A stretch of 64,000 bases of DNA from an uncultured Pseudomonadota bacterium. Its GTDB lineage: Bacteria > Pseudomonadota > Gammaproteobacteria > Steroidobacterales > Steroidobacteraceae. Below are positions 537 through 19,621 of the stretch, piece by piece; the stretch's first letter is position 1, and each line of letters begins with the position of its first letter. The translations under genes and the position numbers were made by a program. The notes beneath the pieces were generated by a model. The model searched no databases and was not told the origin of the DNA. It was given only the letters and a program-made list of their open reading frames with translations. The stretch spans positions 3,890-67,889 of the forward strand of contig CADEED010000002.1 in NCBI GenBank assembly GCA_902826225.1. The letters are read 5' to 3'.

Positions 537-540
537 GTAA

Positions 541-2973: not shown

Positions 2974-2995
2974 CGGCCTGCCCAGGCACCGACGT

Positions 2996-4720: not shown

Positions 4721-4738
4721 GTCGAACCTCGCGGATTG

Positions 4739-4755
4739 AAGGGGTCTGACCCCTT
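4739..4755. repeat. stop-adjacent hairpin AAGGGG-TCTGA-CCCCTT, a copy of the AGGGGNCAGAC motif
   Basis: On the minus strand it reads TAAGGGGTCAGACCCCTTC immediately after the panE-fragment stop. Related motif occurs at 541-559, 592-611 and 18718-18736. Confidence 0.45.
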
Positions 4756-4912
4756 ATTCTTGTGCTGCTTCCAGCAGTGCCACCATCAGCGCATTCATCG
4801 GCGCGTCGATGCCGTGCTTGCGGCCGAGCCGGACGATGACGCCGTTGCGCGCATCGTATTCCATCGGGCGCTTCGCGCGGCGATCGGCCAGCATCGAGTC
4901 GATTCGTGGCGT
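4754..4912 (-). pseudogene. panE: 3' fragment of 2-dehydropantoate 2-reductase (last ~50 codons only)
   Basis: Minus-strand translation RIDSMLADRRAKRPMEYDARNGVIVRLGRKHGIDAPMNALMVALLEAAQE* matches the PanE/ApbA C-terminal motif (SML.D...GR.tEid..nG.vv..G...g...P.n). An in-frame TGA lies just upstream at about 4913-4915, and there is no N-terminal Rossmann part. Confidence 0.55.
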
Positions 4913-6660
4913 TCAACAGCGATGGCACCACGCGTTGGGAGACGCCGCTGCCCGTGTCGACGGGCTTCAAGTCGAGCAACGGACCAGTCGTTCTGGACGA
5001 TGCGACGATTCTCGTGCCCGCAACGCCGCAGGACTACATCATTCTCGGAACCGGACGAGGACTGGCGCCGACCGGATGGCCCGCGCGCGATCGCGATGTC
5101 CGCGGCTCACGCAATGCAGGAGGCGTCGCGCCGATGCCGCCGAACGCGGCACCATCCATCGTGATCACCGACCCGATCACAGTGTCCGTCAGTCTCGACA
5201 TCGGCGAACCGAAGACTGTACGCGCTCGGGCGTCGGATTCGGTTGAGGGAGACATCAGCGCCGCGATTCGCTGGACATCGTCGCTCGAAGGTGAGTTCGC
5301 GACGGGTCCAACGGCGTCCTTGACGGCTCTGGGTGCCGGGACGCACACCATCACGGCGACGGTGACGGACAGCCAGAACCTCTCGGACACGGCAACATTG
5401 CAAATGACCAAGGGGGCATTCGCGCCCGAGCTTTCACTCCTAACGCCTTGGTACGGGCAGACATTCGATGTCAGGCAGCAGATCAACTTTTCGGCGACGG
5501 CCGTGGATCGGGGTGATGGCTTCATTGGTCACCTGATTCGCTGGTCCTCGGATCGAGACGGGCAGATCGGGACAGGCGGGCAAGTAGCGCGCACCAATCT
5601 GACGGCCGGTTCACACACGATCACCGCGACCGTGACGGACAGCTTCGGCTTGACGGCCACGCGCACGGTGCCGATCGAGATCGTGCAGATGGCGCCGGTC
5701 ATCACGCACTCGCCCTATGACCAGGCCGAACTCGACCTCGGCGCGGCCGTGGAGTTCTTCGGGACGGCGACCGACTACGGCGATGGGGATGTGAGTGACA
5801 CCCTGGTCTGGACGTCCGATCGGGACGGCCTGTTGGGGAACGGGCAGACGTTCCTGATCTCGAGCCTCTCCGAGGGCACGCACGTCATCACGGTGACCGC
5901 GCAGGACGACAGCGGAACTGAGACTTCAACCCAGTTCACCGTCATTGTCCGGCCGACGCCACCGACCCTGCAGATCGAGTCCCCCGGCGATTGGAGCTAC
6001 TGGGAAGTCGGCTCGGACATCGGCTTCTACGGGACTGCCTACGACACGACCGATGGTGACATTAGCGCGATGATCCAGTGGTCGTCATTGCTCGACGGCC
6101 CAATTGGCACAGGTCAGGGCTATTTCTATCGGAACGATCTCAGCGTCGGCACGCACATCATCACGGCGACCGTGACGGATTCCGATGGGCAGACGGCGAC
6201 GATGGAGCGCTACATGACGGTCGCGGATCCCAACAACTCGGCGCCGTCCGTGTACATCTACTCGCCGGAGTGGGGCTCGCAGCATTCCGAAAACACCTCC
6301 ATCTCATTGCAGGCCGAGGCTTACGACTATGAGGAGGGGGAACTGACGAATATCCAATGGTCATCGGATCTGCAGGGGCCGCTTGGCGTCGGTGCGAGCA
6401 TAAGCACGTCTGCACTCGGGGTCGGCACGCATCAGATCAAGGCGCTGATCACCGACAGTTCGGGCGCGAAGGGGGTGTACGCAATCACCATCCACGTCGT
6501 GTCCTCTCTCACGTCGCTCGCTCGGGAAATCGCGCGCGAGTCGCTGGTCGCAAGCCGTGAGCCCGAACCTCGACCCGATTCGCCTCGTCTGCCCGAGCGC
6601 GTGGCGCTCGTGGCTGCCCTAACTTCAGAGTCCCGCAACTCGAGCGGAGGTGTGCAATGA
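4906..6660 (+). CDS. Ig-like (PKD/Big-like) tandem-repeat protein, apparently 5'-truncated; translationally coupled to the first toxin gene
   Basis: Five ~90 aa repeats with pattern D..DGD.S..I.W.S..DG.(L/I)G.G......L..G.H.ITATVTDS.G. The first ~80 aa look like the end of a PQQ-like beta-propeller (FNSDGTTRWETP...GWPARDRDVRGSRNAG). No signal peptide. The stop overlaps the next ATG (ATGA at 6657-6660). Confidence 0.7.
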   Translation: MAFNSDGTTRWETPLPVSTGFKSSNGPVVLDDATILVPATPQDYIILGTGRGLAPTGWPARDRDVRGSRNAGGVAPMPPNAAPSIVITDPITVSVSLDIGEPKTVRARASDSVEGDISAAIRWTSSLEGEFATGPTASLTALGAGTHTITATVTDSQNLSDTATLQMTKGAFAPELSLLTPWYGQTFDVRQQINFSATAVDRGDGFIGHLIRWSSDRDGQIGTGGQVARTNLTAGSHTITATVTDSFGLTATRTVPIEIVQMAPVITHSPYDQAELDLGAAVEFFGTATDYGDGDVSDTLVWTSDRDGLLGNGQTFLISSLSEGTHVITVTAQDDSGTETSTQFTVIVRPTPPTLQIESPGDWSYWEVGSDIGFYGTAYDTTDGDISAMIQWSSLLDGPIGTGQGYFYRNDLSVGTHIITATVTDSDGQTATMERYMTVADPNNSAPSVYIYSPEWGSQHSENTSISLQAEAYDYEEGELTNIQWSSDLQGPLGVGASISTSALGVGTHQIKALITDSSGAKGVYAITIHVVSSLTSLAREIARESLVASREPEPRPDSPRLPERVALVAALTSESRNSSGGVQ

Positions 6661-7547
6661 GCTTCCATGGAATGTTCACTCGCGGCCTTGTCGCCGCGCT
6701 GCTGCTGTGCCTGGGCTCGCAGGTCTTTGCCGCGCGCACGACGACCTACCTGCACAACGACGGTCTCGGCTCCGTCGTCGCCGCGACCAACCAGGCAGGC
6801 GCCGTGCTGTGGCGCAAGGACTACGCGCCGTTCGGCGAGCAGATCGACTCGACGCCTGACAGTGAGCGCACCGCCTACACGGGCAAGCAGCACGACGACG
6901 CCATCGGGCTCACCTACTTCGGTGGCCGGCACTTCGATCCTGAGCTCGGGCGATTCACCAGCGTCGACCCGGTCGCGTTCACCGAACAGAACGCGATGAG
7001 CTTCAACCGATACCTGTACGTGAACAACAACCCGTACAAGTATGTGGATCCGGATGGGGAGTTCCTGACCTACGTCGCGAAGTTCGTGATCGACGTGGGC
7101 ATCAACGTCGCGTTGAACTACGTCACAACCGGCGAGGCGAACCTCAAAGGTGCACTGAAGGAATCAGTAATCGGACTCATCAATCCGATCCCGGGCAAAA
7201 ATGCCGGCAAACTCGTGATGGCGATTGCCAAGGCGGGCAAGAAGGCGCCGGAGCCATCAACAGTATCCTCGGCCGCAAGGATACTCAATCCGGAGCAGGC
7301 CGCGAACCTCGCCAGGTTTGAGAAGAAACTTCCCGCTGGCGCTGGACCTACCAAAGTCCATGACTTACCTATTGGGGGCAAGGCCTTCCAGGCTGAAGTT
7401 CCAGGACGCGTCCCTGGGTCGAAGGCCGTTTACGAAAAGCAATTGGACGCGAACGGAATGACGACTGGCTACACAAAAACTACATATGCTCCGGCAGGCG
7501 ACATTGTTCATGTCAAAGACAAGATCACTGGTGAGACTTTCCCGTGA
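6657..7547 (+). CDS. mini-RHS polymorphic toxin 1: signal peptide + RHS core stub + helical linker + unassigned C-terminal domain
   Basis: GGAGG sits 6 nt upstream of the ATG. Signal peptide MSFHGMFTRGLVAALLLCLGSQVFA|A. YD/RHS core ...YTGKQHDDAIGLTYFGGRHFDPELGRFTSVDP...NRYLYVNNNPYKYVDPDGEF. Linker with TTGE ends at KKAPEP. The unique last ~96 aa have no motif I recognise. Confidence 0.85.
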   Translation: MSFHGMFTRGLVAALLLCLGSQVFAARTTTYLHNDGLGSVVAATNQAGAVLWRKDYAPFGEQIDSTPDSERTAYTGKQHDDAIGLTYFGGRHFDPELGRFTSVDPVAFTEQNAMSFNRYLYVNNNPYKYVDPDGEFLTYVAKFVIDVGINVALNYVTTGEANLKGALKESVIGLINPIPGKNAGKLVMAIAKAGKKAPEPSTVSSAARILNPEQAANLARFEKKLPAGAGPTKVHDLPIGGKAFQAEVPGRVPGSKAVYEKQLDANGMTTGYTKTTYAPAGDIVHVKDKITGETFP

Positions 7548-7888
7548 AAAGCAGAACTGATCTCCTTCTTGAGCTTCTCCACGCAAGCCGACCGGCTGAT
7601 CAGATCACGCGGGAGCTTGCCGCCCTTGGATGGGACAGCGACGCAGAGTTAGCGGTCATCACCAAGCGGGACATCGGCGAAATGCTGATGAAGTTCCTGA
7701 AAGGATCAGCCACAGGAAGTGCCGTGCAGGCTTGGGCTGAAGCAATCGAGAGCCGTGATGACGTGGGTCTTGAGCCCGGCTCGCAAGAGATTCTGAAACA
7801 AACTCTTTTCGAACTTGCCAACCCGGATCTCACTAGAAAGTTGACTCCGATCTTGGCGCAGAAGTTGATAGACGATTTGCGGCTTTAG
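7544..7888 (+). CDS. putative cognate immunity protein 1
   Basis: 114 aa, helical-looking. GTG start overlaps the toxin stop (GTGA). Lower GC than the backbone. Function assigned by position only. Confidence 0.65.
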   Translation: MKSRTDLLLELLHASRPADQITRELAALGWDSDAELAVITKRDIGEMLMKFLKGSATGSAVQAWAEAIESRDDVGLEPGSQEILKQTLFELANPDLTRKLTPILAQKLIDDLRL

Positions 7889-7910
7889 CTGCGCGTAGGC
7901 GGTGCAAACT

Positions 7911-8083
7911 ATCACCATCCACGTCGTGCACTCACTGACGTAGTTCGCTAGAGAGATCGCTGGAGAGTTGCCGGTCGCAAGCCGTGAGCCCGAACCTCGA
8001 CCCGATCCCCCTCGTCTGCCCGAACGCGTGGCGCTCGTGGCTGCCCTAACTTCAGAGTCCCGCAACTCGAGCGGAGGTGTGCA
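7911..8083 (+). pseudogene. decayed copy of the 3' end of the Ig-like repeat gene (equivalent to 6484-6656)
   Basis: Starts atcaccatccacgtcgtg as at 6484, diverges and picks up stops (tag), then is near-identical from ggtcgcaagccgtgagcccgaacctcgaccc through the GGAGG and ATG. Confidence 0.7.
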
Positions 8084-9010
8084 ATGAGCTTCCATGGAAT
8101 GTTCACTCGCGGCCTTGTCGCCGCGCTGCTGCTGTGCCTGGGCTCGCAGGTCTTTGCCGCGCGCACGACGACCTACCTGCACAACGACGGTCTCGGCTCC
8201 GTCGTCGCCGCGACCAACCAGGCAGGCGCCGTGCTGTGGCGCAAGGACTACGCGCCGTTCGGCGAGCAGATCGACTCGACGCCTGACAGTGAGCGCACCG
8301 CCTACACGGGCAAGCAGCACGACGACGCCATCGGGCTCACCTACTTCGGTGGCCGGCACTTCGATCCTGAGCTCGGGCGATTCACCAGCGTCGACCCGGT
8401 CGCGTTCACCGAACAGAACGCGATGAGCTTCAACCGATACCTGTACGTGAACAACAACCCGTACAAATATGTGGATCCGGATGGGGAGTTCCTGAACTTC
8501 GCGGCGAAGTTCGTGCTCGATGTGGGCGTGAACATGGCGATCAACTACCTCACCACGGGGGAGTTGAATGTATCCGGCGCGCTGAAGGACTCAGCAATCG
8601 GACTCCTCAATCCCGCGAAGACTACCGCCGGCATCGGAAAGCTGGGAATGGTTCTTTCCAAGGGAGGCAAGGTCACTCCCGACGCCGGCAGCATTGCATC
8701 AGCGACAAGCAAGGCTACCAAACCGGGTCGCGTGAAGAATCACCATCGAGAAGCACCCGACGCTGACGGTCGTCCACATACGTCGTACCGCACCGACGCC
8801 GAGGGACGGGTCACATCTTACGAGACGTACAACTATCCGTCGTCGGGAGTCGGCAAGCGTGTAGATGCAGTCGGGCCGCCGCATAATGGAATCCCGACAC
8901 CACATGTGGTCTCGACAAGCAAGCACGCGAACCCGAAGGACTCAACGAAGTTCTCGTTTAAGGAGACAGGAACGCGCCCAGCGCGGCCCGACGAGATACC
9001 ACGAAGATAG
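8084..9010 (+). CDS. mini-RHS polymorphic toxin 2: same N-terminal module, diverged linker, unassigned His-rich C-terminal domain
   Basis: First 136 aa identical to toxin 1. Linker is homologous but diverged (FAAKFVLDVGVNMAINYLTTGELNVSGALKDSAIGLLNP). C-terminal domain ...GRVKNHHREAPDADGRPHTSYRTDAEGRVTSYETYN...GPPHNGIPTPHVV... Confidence 0.85.
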   Translation: MSFHGMFTRGLVAALLLCLGSQVFAARTTTYLHNDGLGSVVAATNQAGAVLWRKDYAPFGEQIDSTPDSERTAYTGKQHDDAIGLTYFGGRHFDPELGRFTSVDPVAFTEQNAMSFNRYLYVNNNPYKYVDPDGEFLNFAAKFVLDVGVNMAINYLTTGELNVSGALKDSAIGLLNPAKTTAGIGKLGMVLSKGGKVTPDAGSIASATSKATKPGRVKNHHREAPDADGRPHTSYRTDAEGRVTSYETYNYPSSGVGKRVDAVGPPHNGIPTPHVVSTSKHANPKDSTKFSFKETGTRPARPDEIPRR

Positions 9011-9018
9011 GAGCGACC

Positions 9019-9462
9019 GTGAGGATCAGTGAGACTCAACTGGCTGGATTGGACGACTTTCATGCATGGAACGAAGGTAAGACGAGTGCAGAACGTATTT
9101 CGCTCCTGGACTACGCAACTTTTAACGCAACACCGGAGCTGCTTTTTGCTTTTGCAGCGCTGCTGCTCTGCGACCTCATCGAGGTGGAAGGTCACTACTT
9201 CATCGCCGATCGATTCAATCGTGTCTTTTACGAAAGATGGAAGCTGCAGCTGAATGACGGTAAGTCAGTCCAGCGAGTCATGAATCACCTGCACATCAGC
9301 ACACTGCTTCAAAACGCCGAACTCACTGACGACTTGGCCAAGTCCTGCGCCGACCTGATCGCATCTGCATGGTCCGAAGCTCATGCCGCGAAGGGCGTGG
9401 TTGGCGAGGTCCATGGGACTACTCTCGACGATCTTGCGGTTACGCTCGTAAATGGGCGCTAG
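9019..9462 (+). CDS. putative cognate immunity protein 2 (paralog at 2536-2973)
   Basis: 147 aa. GTG start 8 nt after the toxin stop, preceded by taGGAGcg. Lower GC. Confidence 0.7.
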   Translation: MRISETQLAGLDDFHAWNEGKTSAERISLLDYATFNATPELLFAFAALLLCDLIEVEGHYFIADRFNRVFYERWKLQLNDGKSVQRVMNHLHISTLLQNAELTDDLAKSCADLIASAWSEAHAAKGVVGEVHGTTLDDLAVTLVNGR

Positions 9463-9498
9463 TTGGCTTGAGGCTTTTGGGCCGAGTCGAATCAATCC

Positions 9499-9620
9499 TG
9501 CGGATGCGTAGCGTCCGGGTCAATGATCCGAAAAATCTTTCGGGTGCTTGCAGTTCCTGCAATCCCAGCAAGGGGAGCCGCAAACTTGGTTCGGAATGGA
9601 TAGCACCCAACAAAAGGTAG
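9499..9620 (+). pseudogene. 3' remnant of an HNH toxin domain, homologous to the end of toxin 6
   Basis: ...RSVRVNDPKNLSGACSSCNPSKGSRKLGSEWIAPNKR* aligns with ...RSARVNEPKNLSGACTSCNPSKGSRKLGSEWTAPKDR* at 17990-18103. There is no N-terminal module or start codon. Confidence 0.75.
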
Positions 9621-9623
9621 TTA

Positions 9624-10067
9624 ATGAGTCAAGCATCTTCGGTGTACGTTCGAAAGTACGGCAATCCTGACCGTACCGCCGAATACATTTCCCGCGGTGG
9701 CAGCCGCATACAGGTATTTAGATGGGACGCAGACAAGACAGGTGAAGGCGTCACCGTACATGCCACAGCGGGCGCGTCCGACGTGCTTGGTGATGAGACT
9801 CGGGCGTGCGAGTTCTTTGTCGGCTTATCGCCGCCAGTCGATGATATTGCCGAAGCAATCGCAGAAATCGCGCTGCGCGGGATCGGTGGTACCAGCATCC
9901 CCTCGTCTGGAGACACGACCACACTCCCTTTCCCTCTCTGGTCCGGCACCCTGATGCAGAGCGTACTTTTTACAGACGGTTCTGAACTCATTCCGAGCTA
10001 CACGGACTCGACCAAACGACTGGACTTCATCCAGTTGGTACCACTCTATGATTCAGAGCTTGAATAA
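9624..10067 (+). CDS. SUFU-like immunity paralog of 18107-18640, cut short by an in-frame TAA (homology continues in frame to 10157)
   Basis: About 75% identical by eye to immunity 6. TAA at 10065-10067 replaces the Phe codon of the paralog. The same frame then reads KKSNGDKALWREFELRAVAYWNSDRKPAW* ending at 10157, giving the same 534 nt total length as 18107-18640. Confidence 0.7.
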   Translation: MSQASSVYVRKYGNPDRTAEYISRGGSRIQVFRWDADKTGEGVTVHATAGASDVLGDETRACEFFVGLSPPVDDIAEAIAEIALRGIGGTSIPSSGDTTTLPFPLWSGTLMQSVLFTDGSELIPSYTDSTKRLDFIQLVPLYDSELE

Positions 10068-10316
10068 AAAAAGAGCAACGGAGACAAGGCGCTCTGGCGA
10101 GAGTTTGAGTTAAGGGCAGTCGCGTACTGGAACTCAGATCGCAAACCGGCGTGGTAGTCGACTGACCACTTTACCAACCGAACCAAAAGTCAGGCGAAGC
10201 ACAAGGGTGTCGAAATACCAGGTTGTGACAAGGATGGAGTCCCGTCGCAGGCCAGAACGATTGGCCTTGGTGGGTTCTCTAGTTGCTGAGTCCCGGGCCT
10301 CTGGCGGAGGTGTGCG

Positions 10317-11246
10317 ATGAGATTTCATAAAATGATCTCCCGCGGCCTAGCCGCCGCGCTGCTGCTGTGCTTGGGCTCGCAAGCCTTCGCCGCGCGCACG
10401 ACGACCTACCTGCACAACGACGGTCTCGGCTCCGTCGTCGCCGCGACCAACCAGGCAGGCGCCGTGCTGTGGCGCAAGGACTACGCGCCGTTCGGCGAGC
10501 AGATCGACTCGACGCCTGACAGTGAGCGCACCGCCTACACGGGCAAGCAGCACGACGACGCCATCGGGCTCACCTACTTCGGTGGCCGGCACTTCGATCC
10601 TGAGCTCGGGCGATTCACCAGCGTCGACCCGGTCGCGTTCACCGAACAGAACGCGATGAGCTTCAACCGATACCTGTACGTGAACAACAACCCGTACAAG
10701 TACGTGGATCCGGATGGAGAGTTCCTCACCTACGTCGCGAAGTTCGTGATCGACGTGGGCATCAACGTCGCGCTGAACTACGTCACGACGGGTGAGGCGA
10801 ATCTCAAGGGGGCGCTCAAAGAGTCGGTCATCGGGCTCATCAATCCGATCCCAGGGAAGAACGCCGGCAAGTTGCTGATGGCGCTTGGTAAAGCGAGTAA
10901 GAAGGCACCCGATCCAAGGGCGACAATGGGAATCGCTTCGAAAGTCGACAATGCGGCTCCGGACTTCGATACAGCGAGGCGAGCAGCCTTTGACAAGGCA
11001 GGCATGACAGACCCATCAAGAGTTGTGTTCTCCAAGGTTGATCCAAAGACAGGTACAGTGGTTGAGTTCAAAGGGTCGGGAGGGGCGAAAGTTGGGTATG
11101 ACGGTCCGCACAAATCTCCGGGACCGCACCACGATACACAACACATCTCTTGGCAGACCGGTGGAAAACGCAGTCAGGGCGGTCGAGAACGCGGCAATGA
11201 ACCCTACTCTGGTCCTCAGCATCCTTCGCGACCAGACAGGAAATAG
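10317..11246 (+). CDS. mini-RHS polymorphic toxin 3: putative HNH/EndoVII-fold nuclease C-terminal domain
   Basis: Conserved N-terminal module and linker up to KKAPDP. C-terminal domain FDTARRAAFDKAGMTDPSRVVF...GYDGPHKSPGPHHDTQHISWQTGGK resembles His-rich HNH/EndoVII toxin families. That family call is tentative. Confidence 0.8.
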   Translation: MRFHKMISRGLAAALLLCLGSQAFAARTTTYLHNDGLGSVVAATNQAGAVLWRKDYAPFGEQIDSTPDSERTAYTGKQHDDAIGLTYFGGRHFDPELGRFTSVDPVAFTEQNAMSFNRYLYVNNNPYKYVDPDGEFLTYVAKFVIDVGINVALNYVTTGEANLKGALKESVIGLINPIPGKNAGKLLMALGKASKKAPDPRATMGIASKVDNAAPDFDTARRAAFDKAGMTDPSRVVFSKVDPKTGTVVEFKGSGGAKVGYDGPHKSPGPHHDTQHISWQTGGKRSQGGRERGNEPYSGPQHPSRPDRK

Positions 11247-11248
11247 AA

Positions 11249-11680
11249 GTGATTGACGCCGAATTACTATCTGATATCGACGCCATTACAGGAGCTACGC
11301 CTGCTCTACGGACGCTGGAAGCCTCGAAAGCTGAAGAACTGCGAATACGCGTTGGTCAATTGTACGTGCGGGACACTGATTCTCTTTGGTGGTGGGCAAA
11401 CCTCAAAATTCCGATTAGGCGTGTCAGCTATGATCAAGACGACGGTGTAAGCCACTTGATTGAAATCGTCGGTGATGCGAAGGAACTTCTTCTGTTCATT
11501 ACCGACGACGAGTCGCCACCATGGCCGGTTGTAAGTGGTGACGTTGCGAGTATTGGCACACTACTTCGCGAGGTTCGGCACTTCGAGTACTTCATCACAC
11601 CAACGGACTTGAGCTGGATCGCGTTTGATACTCATCAGAACGAAATCGTGACTTCGCGAATGGCAACGAAATCAGAGTGA
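11249..11680 (+). CDS. putative cognate immunity protein 3
   Basis: 143 aa. GTG start 2 nt after the toxin stop. Two 60-nt samples I counted by hand gave about 52-57% GC. Confidence 0.65.
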   Translation: MIDAELLSDIDAITGATPALRTLEASKAEELRIRVGQLYVRDTDSLWWWANLKIPIRRVSYDQDDGVSHLIEIVGDAKELLLFITDDESPPWPVVSGDVASIGTLLREVRHFEYFITPTDLSWIAFDTHQNEIVTSRMATKSE

Positions 11681-12031
11681 GCAGGGGATGTTTGCCAAGC
11701 CGCGTACTGGATTCGTTGCTGCTTCAAAACATATGAAGCGACGAAGAGGCAGTGAAGTCTGTCACTCTTGCGCGATGAGCGAATACAACGTTATGCAGTG
11801 AAGCGAGGGATCAGAATCCAGACGGCTCTTGGACATGCGCAACGTGTGGGCAGAAAACGGATAATCCTGCCAATGTCCACGCCGGGCATAAGAAGGCGCG
11901 GTCGCATGGCGGGGACCTTTCAGATGGCAATCTTCGCTGCGAGGGCGCAGCTTGCAATTTAAGCCAAGGAAATCGAGCCGCGCCCTCATCTGGAATGAGT
12001 TGCGCAGAGCGAGGGAGTTGCGGCGCACCCT

Positions 12032-12529
12032 GTGGACGATCGGACTAGAACCATGACGCACGATCATGTGAGGGTTATTGTAGAAGGAGCCGACAAGGCG
12101 GGGTTCGAGCTCGTTCCAGCACGCAGTCTTGGAAGCGACCACTGGTTACTGCTTCGCACTCCAATGTATGCGCTGCAGTTGGCGGCAGGCGATACGATCA
12201 GATCGCCGAACGACAATTCCGGTGAGTTCGAAGTGATCAGTCGTGGCGGCAACGTCGCTGTGCAGTTTTATCTCGCAGAAGGTAATGCGGACAGCGTTCA
12301 GGAAACCGCAAGTGTGGCGCTTAGTATTGCGCCCGAGATTGAATTGTTAGGCGGCCGCCTTGATGGTCAGACAGCGGGCTTGCTCGTCTATACAGTTCCT
12401 GTCACAGCAGGATTCTCAGCCATCGAGCAAATCTTCCAGTCAGCCGCAAAGAGATTTCCAGGCTCTCAGTGGCAGTACTCCAACATCTACGATTCAGTGA
12501 CCGGCGAAGCGCTCAACTGGTGGAGCTAA
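12032..12529 (+). CDS. orphan immunity-like protein (DUF4265-like by eye); start may be the ATG at 12053
   Basis: 165 aa ORF with no toxin gene upstream. The segment ...GSDHWLLLRTPMYALQLAAGDTIRS...EFEVISRGGNVAVQFY resembles DUF4265 proteins seen in toxin-immunity loci. Confidence 0.5.
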   Translation: MDDRTRTMTHDHVRVIVEGADKAGFELVPARSLGSDHWLLLRTPMYALQLAAGDTIRSPNDNSGEFEVISRGGNVAVQFYLAEGNADSVQETASVALSIAPEIELLGGRLDGQTAGLLVYTVPVTAGFSAIEQIFQSAAKRFPGSQWQYSNIYDSVTGEALNWWS

Positions 12530-12677
12530 GAGCCTGGCAGGCTGCTTGACGAATGAGTCTTCTTCACCGGCGAAGCGGCCTTGTACTTCTTCTTGCGGTG
12601 AGTGCTCGGAGCTGCTTGCAATCTCGCAAAGCACATAGAACGCACAAGCCCTCCCTCCACTTTTTGTGTGGAGACAC

Positions 12678-12707
12678 GGAAACAAAACGGGGCGCCTAAG
12701 CGCCCCG
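12678..12707 (-). terminator. orphan rho-independent terminator, minus-strand orientation
   Basis: Stem CGGGGCGC/GCGCCCCG with a 4 nt loop. On the minus strand it is followed by TTTTGTTT. The hairpin is nearly identical to the cox terminator at 18696-18715. Confidence 0.5.
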
Positions 12708-12718
12708 TGAAGATCACC

Positions 12719-13095
12719 GCGGCCGTGGAGTTCTTCGGGACGGCGACCGACTACGGCGATGGGGATGTGAGTGACACCCTGGTCTGGACGTCCGATCGGG
12801 ACGGCCTGTTGGGGAACGGGCAGACGTTCCTGATCTCGAGCCTTTCCGAGGGCACGCACGTCATCACGGTGACGCGCAGGACGACAGCGGCACCGAGACC
12901 TCCGTTCAGTTCACCGTCATCGTCAGACCGACGCCGCCGACGGTCCAGATCGATTCCCCGACTGACTGGAGTTACTGGGAAGTCGGCTCGGACATCGGCT
13001 TCTACGGGACTGCCTACGACACAACTGACGGTGACATCAGCGCGATGCTCCAGTGGTCGTCGTTGATCGACGGCCCACTCGGCGCAGGTCAGGGC
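12719..13095 (+). pseudogene. internal fragment of the Ig-like repeat gene (equivalent to 5741-6118), frameshifted
   Basis: Near-identical to 5741 onward (AVEFFGTATDYGDGDVSDTLVWTSDRDGLLGNGQTF...). It is 1 nt shorter at about 12874 (gtgacgcgcag versus gtgaccgcgcag), which breaks the frame. Confidence 0.8.
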
Positions 13096-13381
13096 TACAG
13101 CCCGGACATCAGCGTATCGCTCGAAGACCGAAGTGTTTACATAGCATTCCATGCTGGAACTGCCGCTCAACGAAACGAACTCTTGAACGAGATAAGCAAA
13201 CAAGCGGCCAATGAATTTCGTGTCGAACTGCAATTCGAAGAGCTTTGATCTCCCTGCTCAAGACGTTTCACGCGATGGGTACGCGCCGACTCTGACTTGG
13301 GATGAATGGGCAGAAGCTAGTTCACCCAACGGCTTGGGGTCTTCCGACTGCTGAGCTTCGCATTGCTAGCGGAGGTGTGCG

Positions 13382-14233
13382 ATGAGCCTTCATGCGTTGA
13401 TCACTCGTGGCCTGGTCGCCGCGCTGCTGCTGTGCCTAGGCTCGCAGGTCTTTGCCGCGCGCACGACGACCTACCTGCACAACGACGGTCTCGGCTCCGT
13501 CGTCGCCGCGACCAACCAGGCAGGCGCCGTGCTGTGGCGCAAGGACTACGCGCCGTTCGGCGAGCAGATCGACTCGACGCCTGACAGTGAGCGCACCGCC
13601 TACACGGGCAAGCAGCACGACGACGCCATCGGGCTCACCTACTTCGGTGGCCGGCACTTCGATCCTGAGCTCGGGCGATTCACCAGCGTCGACCCGGTCG
13701 CGTTCACCGAACAGAACGCGATGAGCTTCAACCGATACCTGTACGTGAATAACAACCCGTACAAGTATGTGGATCCGGATGGGGAATTTCTGACCTACGT
13801 CGCGAAGTTCGTCATCGACGTGGGCATCAACGTCGCGTTGAACTATGTCACGACGGGGGAAGCGAACCTCAAAGGTGCACTGAAAGAATCGGTGATCGGA
13901 CTCATCAATCCGATTCCGGGAAAAAACGCCGGCAAGCTGCTGATGGCGCTCGGCAAAGCGAGCAAAAGGGCACCTGACCCGAGTGGAGCAGCGAGCTTTG
14001 CCGATAAGGCAAGCAAGGGTGGGGTGTTTGGCGGCATGACTCGAAAGGAGGCATACGGAAATCCTTCGAGTTCTGCGGCTGCAAAAAGGGCGCGGGAGAA
14101 CGCAGAAGGCACCGCGTGCCCCAGCTGCGGAAAAACCATGCGTTCGGGAACGGAATCAGCCCCTGTCGGATCACTTCAACGGGGCAGGCAAGACGATGAC
14201 GTCCACCGAGCGTCGACAGTATGCTCGTACTGA
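13382..14233 (+). CDS. mini-RHS polymorphic toxin 4: HNH-like C-terminal domain, apparently frameshifted (original end probably 14309)
   Basis: Conserved N-terminal module and linker up to KRAPDP. C-terminal domain contains CPSCGKTM. The expected DH motif and an ATGA overlap with the next ORF appear only after a frame change near the CCCC run at 14160-14163. Confidence 0.75.
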   Translation: MSLHALITRGLVAALLLCLGSQVFAARTTTYLHNDGLGSVVAATNQAGAVLWRKDYAPFGEQIDSTPDSERTAYTGKQHDDAIGLTYFGGRHFDPELGRFTSVDPVAFTEQNAMSFNRYLYVNNNPYKYVDPDGEFLTYVAKFVIDVGINVALNYVTTGEANLKGALKESVIGLINPIPGKNAGKLLMALGKASKRAPDPSGAASFADKASKGGVFGGMTRKEAYGNPSSSAAAKRARENAEGTACPSCGKTMRSGTESAPVGSLQRGRQDDDVHRASTVCSY

Positions 14234-14305
14234 AGGCGCCATCAACGGCGCTAAGTGCAAAGTCCGCCAGCAGAATGAAGGGCGCGAAATGCAGAAAGAA
14301 CATCG

Positions 14306-14878
14306 ATGACGATACAAGTTTATGAACGCTATCGTATTGCGTTGGATGGCAGGCTTTCAATTCTGGGGCTGTCAGCCAGTCGAGCGACAGCGTTCGGAGA
14401 GAAGGTTCAGAGCTTTGATGGCGACGTCATGGCAGTCCGATACTCGTCCAAGGACAGGTCCTTTCTTCTGTCGAGAGGATGTGCCAAATACCCAGGGGCG
14501 AATCGCGGATGGCGTGATGAGTTCTTGGTAGAGGAATCCGCCGGCGAAGAGTTCTCCCTCAGTTTGCTCGAGCTGACTGTCTACTACCATCTAACACGCC
14601 GTCCGGTGGAGCCTAGTGATGTTATCGAAATAGGGAGAATCGCGGGAAATGATGCAGGTTACTCACACGTCTACAGCTCGGTACCGTTCTTTCTCCCTGG
14701 CAGCGTGAATGCGATCCAGATGGAGGGTGCCAATTTTGCTTTGCAATGGTTGATGCCGATCTTTCCCCGAGAAGCCGCATTTATCGAAGCGAACGGGTCT
14801 GACAAGTTCGAGACGAGACTGAGATCATCACAGTATGACTTCTTTGACGCTCGTTTAGATCTCGACTACCTGAACTGA
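14306..14878 (+). CDS. putative cognate immunity protein 4 (SUFU-like C-terminal half by eye)
   Basis: 190 aa. The ATG overlaps the stop of the shifted toxin frame (ATGA at 14306-14309). The C-terminus ...FALQWLMPIFPREAAFIEANGSDKFETRL...D..R follows the SUFU-like pattern. Confidence 0.65.
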   Translation: MTIQVYERYRIALDGRLSILGLSASRATAFGEKVQSFDGDVMAVRYSSKDRSFLLSRGCAKYPGANRGWRDEFLVEESAGEEFSLSLLELTVYYHLTRRPVEPSDVIEIGRIAGNDAGYSHVYSSVPFFLPGSVNAIQMEGANFALQWLMPIFPREAAFIEANGSDKFETRLRSSQYDFFDARLDLDYLN

Positions 14879-14943
14879 GTTAGTGCGCATGTCGGACGCT
14901 GAGGACATTACAAACGGTAACGGCAACAAGTTGGCTTCGGACA

Positions 14944-15426
14944 ATGGCTGATGCGTCAGGATCGAAACAATGGCGAATCGGCGATGTTTTCACGATTCCA
15001 ACGAAGGACGGACAGCTCGCCATCGGGCAAATCGTTGGCGTGGAGCCCGACCTGCTCTCCAGTGCCACAGTGGCTCTGTTCGACGAGCGGCACGCATCCA
15101 TCGAAGGGGCTCGAATTCACGCATCGCTGTCACCCGAGAATCTATTCGCTGTGCTCTACGTGACGAAGAACCACCTGGACTCCGGTGACTGGAGAGTTGT
15201 CGACCATCGCAAAGTAGAGGTCGACCCGCGCACGAATCCGTTTGAGCACACGCGAAGCAAAGGATTCATTGGTGCGAAGGTGTTTGGTGCGGACATCGTC
15301 AACGAGTTCGTGAACGCGTTTTACGGGTTGGTTCCTTGGGATGACTGGAAGGACCCGAATTACCTGGATGCCCTGTTGATCTCGAAGGACGTAAAGCCCG
15401 TGGGGCGTTTGATATTCAAGAGCTGA
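14944..15426 (+). CDS. orphan immunity-like protein (Imm26-like by eye)
   Basis: 160 aa with no toxin upstream. WRIGDVFTIPTKDGQLAIGQIVG...PWDDWKDPNYLDALL resembles Imm26-type immunity proteins. Confidence 0.5.
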   Translation: MADASGSKQWRIGDVFTIPTKDGQLAIGQIVGVEPDLLSSATVALFDERHASIEGARIHASLSPENLFAVLYVTKNHLDSGDWRVVDHRKVEVDPRTNPFEHTRSKGFIGAKVFGADIVNEFVNAFYGLVPWDDWKDPNYLDALLISKDVKPVGRLIFKS

Positions 15427-15521
15427 CGTTGGGCCAGAGACTGACTGCTTTCGCGATCTTCGCCAAGATCGCTTGCGGCTATCCTGAACATAGAGTCTCG
15501 CGTCTCGAGCGGGGGTGTGCG

Positions 15522-16463
15522 ATGAGGTCTCATGAACTGATCACCCGCGGTCTCGTCGCCATGCTGCTGCTGAGCCTCGGCGCTCAAGCATTCGCAGCGC
15601 GCACGACGACCTACCTGCACAACGACGGTCTCGGCTCCGTCGTCGCCGCGACCAACCAGGCAGGCGCCGTGCTGTGGCGCAAGGACTACGCGCCGTTCGG
15701 CGAGCAGATCGACTCGACGCCTGACAGTGAGCGCACCGCCTACACGGGCAAGCAGCACGACGACGCCATCGGGCTCACCTACTTCGGTGGCCGGCACTTC
15801 GATCCTGAGCTCGGGCGATTCACCAGCGTCGACCCGGTCGCGTTCACCGAACAGAACGCGATGAGCTTCAACCGATACCTGTACGTGAACAACAACCCGT
15901 ACAAGTACGTGGATCCGGATGGAGAGTTCCTCACCTACGTCGCGAAGTTCGTGATCGACGTGGGCATCAACGTCGCGCTGAACTACGTCACGACGGGTGA
16001 GGCGAATCTCAAGGGGGCGCTCAAAGAGTCGGTCATCGGGCTCATCAATCCGATCCCAGGGAAGAACGCCGGCAAGTTGCTGATGGCGCTTGGTAAAGCG
16101 AGCAAGAAAGCGCCAGATCCCGGCGCGGCAACGGGGATCTTGGCAAACAAAGCGTCAGGAGATGCTTTCGCCCGAAAGGCAATCGCTTCGCTGAAAGAGA
16201 CACAGTCGGGCGTCGTTCAAGAAGTAACAGTTCGTACAAAAAGCGGCGTGCGGACGCGTCTCGACGCGCTTGGTAGAGATGCCTCGAGCGCTGTCCGATG
16301 TAGTGAGTGCAAGGGATCGGCTGCCGCGCGACTAACTACCAATCAAACGAAAGCGTTTCCTGAGATCGAGAAATCTGGCGCAGTTGTCGTTGGCAAAGGA
16401 AAGCCGGGCTTTCCGGGAGGTACCGTGATACCTCCAACCAAAGTCGATATCATCAGGCCATAG
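15522..16463 (+). CDS. mini-RHS polymorphic toxin 5: restriction-endonuclease-fold (PD-(D/E)xK-like) C-terminal domain
   Basis: Start taken at Met32 of ORF 15429..16463 (MRSHELITRGLVAMLLLSLGAQAFA|A), preceded by GGGGG. Conserved core and linker up to KKAPDP. C-terminal domain ...EVTVRTKSGVRTRLDALGRD...VRCSECKGSAAARLTTNQ gives a D...E-x-K signature. Confidence 0.8.
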   Translation: MRSHELITRGLVAMLLLSLGAQAFAARTTTYLHNDGLGSVVAATNQAGAVLWRKDYAPFGEQIDSTPDSERTAYTGKQHDDAIGLTYFGGRHFDPELGRFTSVDPVAFTEQNAMSFNRYLYVNNNPYKYVDPDGEFLTYVAKFVIDVGINVALNYVTTGEANLKGALKESVIGLINPIPGKNAGKLLMALGKASKKAPDPGAATGILANKASGDAFARKAIASLKETQSGVVQEVTVRTKSGVRTRLDALGRDASSAVRCSECKGSAAARLTTNQTKAFPEIEKSGAVVVGKGKPGFPGGTVIPPTKVDIIRP

Positions 16464-16475
16464 CGCGAGATACTT

Positions 16476-16811
16476 ATGGCGATCGACCAACCCGATAAAA
16501 TCGATGCGATTGGACTGGACAATCTCACTTCGAGGGTCGTGCTCACGATTGCCGACCACCTTCCATGGCTAGGTGACGCTGAGGCACATCGAAATCACCT
16601 GCGCGATAAGTTGAACACGTATTTGGCATTTACAGAAAGCGGGGAACTCGCCGAGGCATATCCTGACTCGAAAGGAAGATCAGTCACTATCAGCGTGATC
16701 GGCAAGTACGACCTTTCGCCAGTTGGGAAGGAGTTCTACGAGAATGCCAGCCAAGCACTCGCTAAATCGGGAATAGGCCTGGAGTTCAAGAAGCTCGGCG
16801 CATCTGAGTAG
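16476..16811 (+). CDS. putative cognate immunity protein 5
   Basis: 111 aa. ATG 12 nt after the toxin stop. Function assigned by position only. Confidence 0.65.
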   Translation: MAIDQPDKIDAIGLDNLTSRVVLTIADHLPWLGDAEAHRNHLRDKLNTYLAFTESGELAEAYPDSKGRSVTISVIGKYDLSPVGKEFYENASQALAKSGIGLEFKKLGASE

Positions 16812-16857
16812 TGTGCACGAACGTTCCGAAACGAGGACGGGGCGCTGAGGTGCTCCG

Positions 16858-17191
16858 TCGCGCATACGAAGAAGGCTACCTCACCGACATACATTGGTCG
16901 TCGAATCTCGAGGGACAGCTCGGAGTCGGTACGAGCATCGAGACCCCCGGACTCAGTGTCGGCACGCACGATCAAGGCGCTGATCACCGACAGTTCGGGC
17001 GCGAAGGGGGTGTACGCAATCACCATCCACGTCGTGTCCTCTCTCACGTCGCTCGCTCGGGAAATCGCGCGCGAGTCGCTGGTCGCAAGCCGTGAGCCCG
17101 AACCTCGACCCGATTCGCCTCGTCTGCCCGAGCGCGTGGCGCTCGTGGCTGCCCTAACTTCAGAGTCCCGCAACTCGAGCGGAGGTGTGCA
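16858..17191 (+). pseudogene. 3' fragment of the Ig-like repeat gene (last repeat plus tail), frameshifted
   Basis: AYEEGYLTDIHWSSNLEGQLGVGTSIETPGLSVGTH is a diverged version of repeat 5. It is 2 nt shorter at about 16968 (gcacgatcaagg versus gcatcagatcaagg). After that it is identical to 6437-6656 up to the next ATG. Confidence 0.8.
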
Positions 17192-18103
17192 ATGAGCTTC
17201 CATGGAATGTTCACTCGCGGCCTTGTCGCCGCGCTGCTGCTGTGCCTGGGCTCGCAGGTCTTTGCCGCGCGCACGACGACCTACCTGCACAACGACGGTC
17301 TCGGCTCCGTCGTCGCCGCGACCAACCAGGCAGGCGCCGTGCTGTGGCGCAAGGACTACGCGCCGTTCGGCGAGCAGATCGACTCGACGCCTGACAGTGA
17401 GCGCACCGCCTACACGGGCAAGCAGCACGACGACGCCATCGGGCTCACCTACTTCGGTGGCCGGCACTTCGATCCTGAGCTCGGGCGATTCACCAGCGTC
17501 GACCCGGTCGCGTTCACCGAACAGAACGCGATGAGCTTCAACCGATACCTGTACGTGAACAACAACCCGTACAAGTATGTGGATCCGGATGGGGAGTTCC
17601 TGACCTACGTCGCGAAGTTCGTGATCGACGTGGGCATCAACGTCGCGTTGAACTACGTCACAACCGGCGAGGCGAACCTCAAAGGTGCACTGAAGGAATC
17701 AGTAATCGGACTCATCAATCCGATTCCGGGAAAGAACGCCGGCAAACTCTTGATGGCGCTCGGCAAGGCGAGCAAGAAAGCGCCAAGTCCAAGCGCGGCC
17801 GGAAAGAGCGTCATTCCTCCGTACTCGCGAAACAAATACGACAGGCTTACGGAGAAGGAAAGAAACGACGTCTTAAAGAAGGACCCGAACTGCGTGTACT
17901 GTAACGACCAGCCTTCCAAGACCGTAGATCACGTGAGATCGCAAAAGGAAGATTGGGTCAGCGGAGGATACAAAGACACGCAGGCAGTGCGTAGCGCGAG
18001 AGTCAATGAGCCGAAGAATCTTTCAGGCGCCTGCACGTCCTGCAATCCCAGCAAGGGAAGCCGGAAACTTGGTTCTGAATGGACAGCTCCTAAAGATAGG
18101 TAG
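17192..18103 (+). CDS. mini-RHS polymorphic toxin 6: HNH endonuclease C-terminal domain
   Basis: N-terminal 136 aa identical to toxin 1. C-terminal domain CVYCNDQPSKTVDHVRS...NEPKNLSGACTSCNPSKGSRKLG is a classic HNH signature (CxxC..DH..N..CxxCNxxKG). Confidence 0.88.
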   Translation: MSFHGMFTRGLVAALLLCLGSQVFAARTTTYLHNDGLGSVVAATNQAGAVLWRKDYAPFGEQIDSTPDSERTAYTGKQHDDAIGLTYFGGRHFDPELGRFTSVDPVAFTEQNAMSFNRYLYVNNNPYKYVDPDGEFLTYVAKFVIDVGINVALNYVTTGEANLKGALKESVIGLINPIPGKNAGKLLMALGKASKKAPSPSAAGKSVIPPYSRNKYDRLTEKERNDVLKKDPNCVYCNDQPSKTVDHVRSQKEDWVSGGYKDTQAVRSARVNEPKNLSGACTSCNPSKGSRKLGSEWTAPKDR

Positions 18104-18106
18104 GCG

Positions 18107-18640
18107 ATGAATCAAGCATCAGCTCTTTATGACCGAAAATACGGCAGCCCTGATCGGACGGCGGAATTCACCTCGCGCAACGGCTGCCGTATCTATGTCT
18201 TCAAGTGGAATGCCGACAAGACCAGTGAGGGCGTCACCGTGTATGCCACGGGCGGAGCATCTGACGTATTAGGCGATGAAAGTCGATCTTGCGAGTTCTT
18301 TATCGGCTTATCGCCTCCGGTTGACGACATTGCCGATTCACTCGCTGAACTCGCGCTGCACGGAATCGGCAGCGCTACCGTGCCCAGCTTTGGAGACACG
18401 ACCACGCTTTCCTTTCCCCTATGGTCGGGCACTCCCATGCAGACCTTTCTCTATACCGACGGTTCTGGGCTCATCCCGAGTTATACCGACTCGACTAAGA
18501 GAGTCGATTTCATTCAACTGGTACCGCTCTTTGATTCGGAGCTGGAGTTCAAGAAGAAGAATGGAGAGAAAGCGCTTTGGCGCGAATTCGAGTCACGGGC
18601 CGTCGCGTACTGGGATTCCGATCGCGCACCGGCGTGGTAG
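18107..18640 (+). CDS. putative cognate immunity protein 6 (SUFU-like)
   Basis: 177 aa. ATG 3 nt after the toxin stop. GVTVYATGGASDVLGD...CEFFIGLSP...VDFIQLVPLFDSELEFKKKNGEKAL follows the bacterial SUFU-like immunity pattern. Confidence 0.7.
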   Translation: MNQASALYDRKYGSPDRTAEFTSRNGCRIYVFKWNADKTSEGVTVYATGGASDVLGDESRSCEFFIGLSPPVDDIADSLAELALHGIGSATVPSFGDTTTLSFPLWSGTPMQTFLYTDGSGLIPSYTDSTKRVDFIQLVPLFDSELEFKKKNGEKALWREFESRAVAYWDSDRAPAW

Positions 18641-18683
18641 CCCGGGCTGCGTTCCCGAGATCCGAGTCAAGTGTGAATTGCGC

Positions 18684-18715
18684 GCGAGAATGAAACGGGG
18701 CGCCGAAGCGCCCCG
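18684..18715 (-). terminator. rho-independent terminator of the cox operon
   Basis: Stem CGGGGCGC/GCGCCCCG (18696-18715) with loop CGAA. On the minus strand it is followed by TTTCATTCTC. Confidence 0.6.
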
Positions 18716-18717
18716 AG

Positions 18718-18736
18718 TTAAAGGTGTCTGTCCCCT
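18718..18736. repeat. stop-adjacent AGGGGNCAGAC motif copy
   Basis: The minus strand reads TAA-AGGGGACAGACACCTTTAA directly after the coxC stop. Confidence 0.4.
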
Positions 18737-19621
18737 TTAGATCCAGTAGACGAAGATGAAGAGGCCGAGCCACACCACGTCGACGAAGTGCCAGTACCAG
18801 GCCACCGCCTCGAACGCGAAATGCCGCTCCGGCGTGAAGTGTCCCTTCATCGTGCGCAGCCAGATGCAGAACAACATGATCGCGCCGAGCGTCACGTGGA
18901 ATCCGTGGAAGCCGGTGAGCATGAAGAACGTCGAGCCGTAGATGCCGGTGCCGAGCTGCAGGCCAAGGTGGCCATACGCCTCGCCGTACTCGTGCGCCTG
19001 CAGGTAAACGAACAGGAAGCCGAGAAGGAACGTGAGCGCGAGGAAGATGTTGAGGATGGCGCGGTTGCCGGCGCGCAGCGCGTGGTGCGCGATGGTCACC
19101 GTGACGCCGGACATCAACAGGATGATCGTGTTCCACGCCGGCAGGCCGAACGCGGGGATCGTCTCGAACGTCCCGTCTTCGCGGGGGCTCAGACGCGCGG
19201 GGCCATTGGTCGGCCACGTGTTCTCGAACGACGGATGCAGCAGCTCGTTGCCGATGACCTTCGTGCCCTCACCGCCGAGCCAGGGCACGGAGAGCTCCCG
19301 TGCGTAGAACAGCGCGCCGAAAAACGCGGCGAAGAACATCACTTCCGAGAAGATGAACCACATCATGCCCATGCGGAACGACCGGTCGACGTCCCAGCCG
19401 TAGAGGCCCTGCTGGTTCTCGTCGATGACGTTGCCGAACCAGCCGATGAACATGTAGCAGACCAGCGCGAAGCCGGGGAGCATCGCCCACGCCGGCAGCC
19501 AGTGGTTGAGCAGCGCGACGGCGCCGAGCAGCAGCGTGAAGAACGCCGCGGAACCGATGATCGGCCACTTGCTCTCGTGGGGAACGTAGTACTTGCCGGT
19601 GGAGGCGTGAGCGTCTGCCAT
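18737..19621 (-). CDS. coxC: cytochrome c oxidase subunit III
   Basis: 294 aa polytopic membrane protein; ...HGFHVTLGAIMLFCIWLR...FEAVAWYWHFVDVVWLGLFIFVYWI. Confidence 0.92.
   Translation of the reverse strand: MADAHASTGKYYVPHESKWPIIGSAAFFTLLLGAVALLNHWLPAWAMLPGFALVCYMFIGWFGNVIDENQQGLYGWDVDRSFRMGMMWFIFSEVMFFAAFFGALFYARELSVPWLGGEGTKVIGNELLHPSFENTWPTNGPARLSPREDGTFETIPAFGLPAWNTIILLMSGVTVTIAHHALRAGNRAILNIFLALTFLLGFLFVYLQAHEYGEAYGHLGLQLGTGIYGSTFFMLTGFHGFHVTLGAIMLFCIWLRTMKGHFTPERHFAFEAVAWYWHFVDVVWLGLFIFVYWI

Follow-up and report, generated by a model that had tools for sequence, protein, structure and literature searches.

A tandem array of six small Rhs-class toxin genes with a near-identical core block in an uncultured Steroidobacteraceae bacterium, and evidence for recombination among its cassettes

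Recombination at conserved cores is an accepted engine of toxin diversification in the Rhs, contact-dependent inhibition (CDI) and Maf systems, where it is usually inferred from fragments that are about 95% similar. Here we describe a tandem array of six small genes which, on the basis of their sequences, are assigned to the Rhs class of polymorphic toxin-immunity cassettes and which share a nearly invariant block of 309 nt. The array lies in a stretch of 64,000 nt (the window, whose own numbering is used throughout) from an uncultured bacterium of the Steroidobacteraceae, within the Gammaproteobacteria (GenBank assembly GCA_902826225.1, contig CADEED010000002.1, positions 3,890 to 67,889). 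In the rhs locus of Salmonella Typhimurium LT2, a conserved core stretch of 522 bp, with 95% identity, mediates the recombination that re-deploys alternative toxins (PMC3967940; for a review see PMC4436062).

As in the main and orphan Rhs loci of the Enterobacteriaceae, the core sequence is common to the tandem cassettes and represents a substrate for homologous recombination, the variable toxin part starts at a DPxG motif, each toxin gene is followed by a putative immunity gene and the older cassettes are displaced downstream. Rhs orphans, however, are fragments lacking a start codon and an export signal, which need to recombine with the main rhs gene of about 1,400 aa, whereas every cassette of the window has its own ribosome-binding site, ATG and signal peptide. 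Moreover, in classical Rhs proteins the YD shell belongs to the same polypeptide as the toxin, unlike in the window. A second likeness is with the MafB toxins encoded by the maf islands of Neisseria, which are also small toxins with a Sec signal peptide, a conserved N-terminal domain, a variable toxin part and an immunity gene, with several cassettes per island (PMC4287609; PMC4436062). The conserved domain of MafB is DUF1020, whereas that of the window is an Rhs core; in addition, Maf orphan cassettes lack the N-terminal part and maf has no giant upstream partner gene.

From a structural perspective, the protein encoded by the block aligns to the C-terminal plug of the Tc toxin TcB-TcC and of the Rhs and teneurin shells (PDB 4igl, 5kis, 6h6e, 7q97 and 8cp6). 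TcB and TcC build one cocoon from two polypeptides. In the solved shells the core is continuous with at least 600 aa of YD repeats, whereas in the window it stands alone behind a signal peptide; in those relatives that have YD repeats, these are found in the preceding gene, separated from the core by propeller, TSP3, PKD and lectin-like domains. Finally, the arrays of immunity genes of the type VII secretion system in firmicutes (PMC9484751) offer another case in which recombination between tandem paralogues, leaving mosaic tracts, shapes a toxin-immunity locus. There it is the immunity genes that recombine, whereas in the window it is the constant domain of the toxin, while cargo and immunity remain diverse.

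The constant block and its flanks

The block is carried by six open reading frames (ORFs), all on the plus strand and encoding proteins of 283-313 aa. An exact comparison of the six copies places it at 6731-7039 (copy 1), 8158-8466 (copy 2), 10391-10699 (copy 3), 13456-13764 (copy 4), 15596-15904 (copy 5) and 17266-17574 (copy 6), where a first-pass annotation of this DNA had seen it by eye, and no seventh copy was found by BLAST in the 64-kb window. Among the 1,854 bases of the six copies there are 2 differences, with pairwise identities of 99.4-100%: copies 1, 2, 3 and 6 are mutually identical, block position 295 of copy 4 (window position 13750) carries a synonymous C>T (AAC>AAT) and copy 5 differs solely in its first base, a C>A, which is also synonymous. 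The first-pass annotation had reported the C>T as the only change seen by eye. In each gene the block begins with the third base of codon 25, at the predicted signal-peptidase site, and ends with codon 128, immediately ahead of the motif YVDPDGE; it represents the DNA for the whole mature Rhs-associated core domain (residues 26-128).

Outside these limits the copies diverge, as found by a MAFFT alignment of the six units and a per-site table. On the 5' side (nt 1-74 from the ATG) copies 1, 2 and 6 are identical and the other pairs differ by 12-27%, with four signal-peptide haplotypes (MSFHGMF, MRFHKMI, MSLHALI and MRSHELI) that show many amino-acid changes. On the 3' side (124 nt) copies 1 and 6 are identical, as are copies 3 and 5, while the remaining pairs differ by 7-26%, with copy 4 in between and copy 2 the farthest from the others. 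Both the divergent signal-peptide codons and the linker haplotypes shared by copies 1 and 6 and by copies 3 and 5 had been noticed at first pass. An even spread of substitutions, named at that time as contrary to recombination between the copies, is not what the alignment contains: of the 507 nt, 66 are variable, and yet 293 consecutive nt show no variation, a length reached in 0 of 200,000 permutations, whose maximum was 116. The block has a genome-like G+C content of 65-68%, compared with 50-57% in the toxin and immunity parts.

Two other features of the block were considered and rejected. For an element acting at the RNA or nucleotide level, the folding z was -1.52, with 9 of 100 shuffles as stable, and no Rfam match was found in 4500-19000. 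The minus-strand ORFs that lie over the block (e.g., 6432-6932) are shadow ORFs of the kind usual for G+C-rich coding DNA.

Recombination between the copies

The constancy of the block extends to its silent positions. Only 1 of 101 conserved codons varies synonymously in the block, versus 19 of 41 in the linker (Fisher p = 2e-11), as counted for the linker in the five copies whose linker protein is identical. Because the linker, equally conserved as a protein, varies at so many synonymous codons, the constancy of the block does not come from selection at the protein level. For the same core codons, 27-29% of the conserved ones differ synonymously between genomes, and 8-11% between paralogues in two other genomes. 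Furthermore, exact identity around the block extends over different lengths in different pairs: 755 nt for copies 1 and 6 (6435-7189 and 16970-17724, in copies 10.5 kb apart), 506 nt for copies 3 and 5 (to 10897 in copy 3, and over 15597-16102 in copy 5), 442 nt for copies 1, 2 and 6, and about 300-314 nt for the other pairs. The informative sites alternate between groupings (copies 1, 4 and 6 against 3 and 5; copies 1 and 6 against 3, 4 and 5; copies 4 and 6 against the rest), and of the 666 pairs that they form, 155 violate the four-gamete test, with a clustering of the conflicting pairs (PHI-like permutation p = 0.0013).

A sister contig of 9,880 nt (CADEEJ010000201.1, from the metagenome-assembled genome (MAG) 'Steroidobacter sp. 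RBC007'), identified in a scan of genome collections, is 99.5% identical to the window, which marks the bacterium of the window as a Steroidobacter or a close relative, and has a single difference from it in roughly 6 kb of non-repeated DNA. Its four block copies all bear the same four changes with respect to the window, at block positions 142, 220, 223 and 238, which fall on third codon positions and are synonymous, and they retain the copy-specific variants of copies 4 and 5. In the linker, its copy 1 has alleles of the copy-3 type at positions 387-411, and its copies 3 and 5 have alleles of the copy-1 type at 457-486 and switch back at 492; the resulting 6-nt junction (486/492) must exist in reads and is no graph artefact. 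This pattern of differences between the contig and the window is the signature of concerted evolution, faster than point mutation.

From the synonymous contrast, the nested tracts, the incompatible sites, the sister contig and the codon variation between genomes, gene conversion or homologous recombination among the cassettes, probably ongoing, as suggested at first pass, emerges as the best-supported reading, with a probability of about 0.8; a role of the block as a substrate for swapping and duplicating modules is plausible. The process would be one of concerted evolution, in which repeated, short-tract, non-reciprocal homologous recombination overwrites one tandem copy with another. Conversion tracts would end where the signal-peptide codons or the linker are too diverged for strand exchange, and the longer pairwise tracts and mosaic linker haplotypes would be traces left by single events. 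The toxin and immunity parts, variable and of lower G+C, would probably derive from horizontal transfer, with displacement of the older cassettes. That the enzymology is of the RecA type, and that divergence sets the sharp boundaries of the tracts, is what we infer.

Several observations weigh against recombination as the source of the identity. The sister contig is a short-read MAG contig, whose gene order is unreliable. The retained copy-specific differences are confined to the outermost 15 nt at the ends of the block, and both edges are more than 70 nt away from each of the four sites at which the sister contig and the window differ. If the window was assembled from short reads, or polished with them, small interior differences could have been merged into one consensus, which both patterns would fit. 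In the array of a 288-kb JGI contig and in the complete genome of Teredinibacter the core is only 90-97% identical, and boundaries so sharp and so common to all copies are somewhat unexpected for random conversion tracts.

The alternative that survives best, although we hold it improbable, is an assembly artefact in which real interior differences were replaced by one consensus in all copies, with the pairing of flanks and cassettes possibly permuted. It gains from the fact that the block and the tracts (up to 755 nt) are longer than short reads, from the survival of copy-specific variants at block positions 1 and 295 only, near unique flanks, from the joint switch of the four interior sites in all copies, and from the sister contig, which breaks and possibly misjoins exactly at these repeats. 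Nevertheless, the 101-kb contig of the window has no ambiguous bases and traverses six repeats of up to 755 nt, which is rare for short reads and suggests long-read data. The read-level evidence, which covers the flanks of the blocks only, is given by Logan contigs of the runs ERR3089231 and ERR3089233, matching the window at 100% from 16033 or 16073 to 16999. Both contigs stop 30 nt inside the tract shared by copies 1 and 6, and the left end of the one starting at 16073 lies 30 nt inside the tract shared by copies 3 and 5. Overhangs of 30 nt are expected of a k=31 graph if these repeat boundaries, at which the contigs of both runs precisely end, are real. In addition, the 486/492 junction of the sister contig is not explicable by the graph, and bubble merging hides variants only between near-identical paths. 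At worst, the identity of the block would still be ~98.7% or higher, versus roughly 83% in the flanks, so that the homogenisation stands and only the 'perfect' identity is uncertain.

Serial horizontal import, a model accepted for rhs and cdi loci (PMC4436062), would bring in cassettes from different strains with a species-wide invariant block and integrate them by crossovers in the block, with no intragenomic conversion. It agrees with a G+C of the toxin and immunity parts lower than that of the genome and, as displacement predicts, with the remnants of a large upstream gene (the carrier gene, described below) ahead of every cassette; nonetheless, we regard it as decidedly improbable. The invariant block of the donor population would still need explaining, and the sister contig, the sole other strain compared, has a different block allele in all its copies. 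Identical tracts, moreover, join the non-adjacent copies 1 and 6 as well as 3 and 5, and none of the non-self homologues among the matches listed from 5.8 billion proteins exceeds 78% identity. Purifying selection by itself, acting on the protein or on codon choice and with no recombination between copies, can be dismissed as very improbable, for although the block encodes the most conserved domain of these proteins and the core is also the most conserved part in other arrays, the synonymous variation reported above for the linker, and for the core between genomes and between paralogues elsewhere, speaks against it, as does the joint change of all copies at four synonymous sites between two near-identical strains.

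The encoded proteins and the order of the array

Each of the six proteins comprises a signal peptide, the Rhs-associated core, a helical linker and a variable C-terminal toxin domain, and by this composition the genes are classed as putative "mini-Rhs" polymorphic toxins of about 300 aa. All six match TIGR03696 (IPR022385, RHS repeat-associated core) at residues 56-134 with 77-79 bits (cut-off, 32.5 bits) and E ~1e-22. Of the 909 positions of the TEN_YD-shell model only ~789-907 are matched, no match to RHS_repeat was found in the six by a Pfam scan and, at 283-313 aa, the proteins do not include the large YD-repeat shell. Against the solved Rhs, TcC and teneurin shells, the core aligns with the very last ~105 residues, which form the inward plug up to the aspartyl self-cleavage site. 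The AF2 model (pTM 0.28) has only a few beta hairpins (residues 31-94), preceded by a helix (3-23), and a Foldseek search with this model, a small fragment as a query, returned only Rhs and teneurin shells, with low TM, in agreement with the sequence alignment but adding little to it. Among 79 homologues, 19 residues of the core domain are invariant and 28 nearly invariant; the junction has the motifs FDPELGRF and YVDPDGE, where D131 and G134 never vary and P132 and D133 hardly do, and the proteins may undergo self-cleavage at the DPxG motif. The conserved linker of ~60 residues, with three helices predicted by AF2 at 135-196, is identical as a protein in five of the six copies.

The first 25 residues resemble a signal peptide, with a basic residue, a hydrophobic run and an AxA-type end, which suggests that the small toxins are exported by Sec. 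A lipoprotein signal peptide, suggested by the Cys in LLLCLG, was rejected by inspection, as copy 5 has a Ser there and the preceding residues misfit a lipobox. The ATG of each copy is preceded by GGAGG 8-9 nt upstream; the cassettes are therefore complete genes, and none of the six is a fragment without initiation or export signals. The signal peptide argues against type VI delivery; no PAAR, VgrG or prePAAR was found in the six proteins or in the upstream ORF, and no gene of the type VI secretion system adjoins the array, the rest of the window not having been scanned for such genes. PF06255 (DUF1020) has no match at E <= 0.01 in the six proteins.

The C-terminal domains belong to different families, namely Ntox24 in copy 2, Ntox47 in copy 3 and HNH in copy 6, while those of copies 1, 4 and 5 have no family match; among the genes 3' of the toxins, putative immunity types are represented by SUFU-like, DUF6572, Imm26 and DUF4265 genes. 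All the genes of the array are on the plus strand. Toxin gene 1 (6657-7547, 296 aa; TIGR03696 at 78 bits, E = 5e-22; no Pfam match for the C-terminal domain) is followed by putative immunity gene 1 (7544-7888, 114 aa), proposed from its position, with a start that overlaps the toxin 1 stop, and without a family match. Toxin gene 2 (8084-9010, 308 aa; Ntox24 in Pfam, E = 1.8e-10; TIGR03696) comes after a carrier-tail remnant (7891-8087) that is 92% identical to 6464-6660 and ends in an ATGA overlap, and it precedes putative immunity gene 2 (9019-9462, 147 aa), again proposed from position and without a family match. Between toxins 2 and 3 there is a decayed cassette (9369-10067) without the N-terminal constant part, made of the 3' remnant of an HNH toxin gene (9369-9620) and a SUFU-like immunity gene (9624-10067); its DNA is ~76% identical to that of the toxin 6 C-terminal domain and immunity gene 6 (17988-18640). 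A further carrier-tail remnant (10114-10320), ending in ...RRPERLALVGSLVAESRASGGGVR and a stop with an ATGA overlap, leads to toxin gene 3 (10317-11246, 309 aa; Ntox47 in Pfam, E = 1.4e-23; TIGR03696), behind which lies putative immunity gene 3 (11249-11680, 143 aa), placed by position and with no significant family match.

The right part of the array includes an extra immunity-like gene with no adjoining toxin (12032-12529; DUF4265 in Pfam, E = 1.6e-14) and a duplicated fragment of the carrier gene (12718-13097) that corresponds to 5742-6122 with 91% identity overall; of its ~380 nt, the first 156 nt are 99% identical and the remainder ~86%. Toxin gene 4 (13382-14233, 283 aa; TIGR03696), whose linker combines patches of the copy-1 and copy-3 haplotypes, encodes a short C-terminal domain with a CxxC motif that is assigned to no family, and is followed by the SUFU-like putative immunity gene 4 (14306-14878, 190 aa; Pfam SUFU, E = 5e-6) and by an extra Imm26-like immunity gene, again with no adjoining toxin (14944-15426; Pfam Imm26, E = 1.4e-6). 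The DUF4265 and Imm26 genes may be orphan immunities kept after toxin loss. Toxin gene 5 (15522-16463, 313 aa from the ATG, with an open frame from 15429; TIGR03696, C-terminal family not assigned) has its ATG overlapped by a carrier-tail remnant of 26 codons (15445-15525) and is paired with putative immunity gene 5 (16476-16811, 111 aa; DUF6572 in Pfam, E = 8e-28), which is 100% identical in the read-level contigs of both runs. Toxin gene 6 (17192-18103, 303 aa; HNH in Pfam for the C-terminal domain alone, E = 1e-4; TIGR03696) lies behind a duplicated carrier 3' end (16889-17195), 100% identical from 16970 to the sequence from 6435 onwards, and is followed by the SUFU-like putative immunity gene 6 (18107-18640, 177 aa; Pfam SUFU, E = 6.7e-11).

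The carrier fragment at 12718-13097 is a second recombination substrate inside the array, and it is exactly there that the sister contig switches paths. The cassette order along positions 1-9880 of that contig is toxin 3, cassette 4, the N-terminal part of 5 fused to toxin 3, the PKD fragment, 1 and 2. The copy-3 cassette is present twice, over 2,091 nt with 100% identity, and the contig ends inside repeats; the altered order is either a real product of unequal crossover or a misassembly of the short-read graph. Two G+C-rich hairpins at 12687-12708 and 18696-18715 are nearly identical (CGGGGCGC-loop-GCGCCCCG, with a run of T behind it on the minus strand), one of them behind a cytochrome oxidase subunit III-like gene and the other within the array, and may be a REP-like element or a terminator. 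A larger segmental duplication tying 12600-12720 to the right end of the array was rejected, as only a 23-nt G+C-rich hairpin is common to both. A scan for promoters and terminators gave counts at or below those expected from shuffles and is uninformative on operon structure. The neighbours of the array are a D-aminoacylase-like ORF, a remnant of panE and cytochrome oxidase genes.

The giant upstream gene and the wider family

A protein search gave 196 homologues of the small toxins at E <= 1e-10. Nearly all of the best 120 of these 196, from which sizes and domains were taken, have 290-325 aa and they carry many different toxin domains. The cores of other arrays are 95-100% identical to one another inside an array, versus ~80% across genomes, with the exception of the array of the 288-kb JGI contig and of the two copies in the complete Teredinibacter genome, both at the 90-97% mentioned above; in one further array (L010) the copies are 100% identical up to the same 3' boundary, at about +390. 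Perfect homogenisation is a property of the lineage of the window and not of the whole family. A Bacteroidota MAG contains another array, at 2500-12200 of the retrieved locus, in which five genes in tandem encode a more remote version of the Rhs core (30-40% aa identity).

In every locus whose available sequence reaches far enough upstream, a giant gene lies directly 5' of the first small toxin gene, often with the 4-nt start overlap ATGA. In six loci in which the match to the small toxin lies at position ~10001, the giant protein has at least 3,333 aa in a Steroidobacteraceae MAG (L004), 2,673 aa in an uncultured Gammaproteobacteria MAG (L005), 2,291 aa, with its own signal peptide, in the 288-kb JGI contig (L009), 3,516 aa in a 2.1-Mb JGI contig, 4,473 aa in Teredinibacter sp. 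KSP-S5-2 (CP120416.1) and 2,440 aa in Colwellia sp. RSH04 (QXIO01000001.1). Between them, the giants include DUF6531, YD/RHS repeats, TSP3 repeats, PQQ-type propellers, PKD/Ig domains and a lectin-like domain. An NCBIfam scan of three of them (L004, L005 and L009) found no Rhs-associated core, and the N-terminal 1,400 aa of the L009 giant gave no match to solved structures at E <= 0.001. A C-terminal tail of the giant, PERVALxAxLxxExRxSxGGV, is conserved in some relatives, with L004 the closest, and in the relatives, pieces of the 3' part of the giant gene stand ahead of the later cassettes.

The same organisation can be recognised in the window, in a reduced form. The plus-strand ORF at 4906-6660 (open frame from 4840), with PKD, HYR and Big_7 matches in Pfam and PKD/Ig-like repeats, is a 5'-truncated remnant of the carrier gene; it aligns only to residues ~1970-2518 and 3287-3333 of the L004 giant (at least 3,333 aa), and it ends in the proline-rich conserved tail ...PERVALVAALTSESRNSSGGVQ, with a stop that overlaps the ATG of toxin gene 1 (ATGA). 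Remnants of this tail are present ahead of copies 2, 3, 5 and 6, and the PKD fragment ahead of copy 4. On the other side, at 4757-4900 on the minus strand, are the last ~45 codons of a gene for ketopantoate reductase (PanE/ApbA; Pfam ApbA_C positions 80-124 of 125, E = 9.6e-13). The 3' end of panE (minus strand) here abuts the interior of the carrier gene (plus strand), both truncated, so that 4757-4906 is a deletion scar, and the array has lost about 2,000 codons of its upstream partner, of which the last ~600 codons remain.

Recombination at the conserved Rhs core is already known; the split, fully translatable architecture of the cassettes appears to be undescribed. A literature search, not claimed to be exhaustive, turned up no account of genes for a signal peptide, core and toxin that are paired with giant YD proteins lacking a core. 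A tentative proposal, compatible with all the data but which we consider less probable than its negation, is that of a split Rhs, in which the core-less, Sec-exported giant would be the shell or carrier and the small toxins would be interchangeable warheads docking in trans after export. Conversion would then preserve a uniform docking domain, encoded by the block, through which one carrier could take any of the six cargoes even as these and their immunity genes diversify, and the cassettes would be simultaneously usable rather than silent spares. In the window the carrier would have been decapitated, leaving an orphaned but still homogenising arsenal and island of immunity genes.

Compared with the fragments of about 95% similarity on which the role of conserved cores usually rests, the signature in the window is unusually clean, with near-zero synonymous divergence in the block and sharp, domain-exact borders. 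The sister contig suggests that conversion events are frequent enough to outpace point mutation; the locus would therefore suit the direct measurement, by long reads, of the rates of conversion and cassette shuffling. The genes for core plus toxin that stand behind core-less giants in Steroidobacteraceae, Teredinibacter and Colwellia suggest that the Rhs container and the plug with its toxin can be separate polypeptides. If true, this would change the view of how toxins are loaded and exchanged, and it would explain many of the short proteins annotated as 'RHS repeat-associated core domain-containing protein'.

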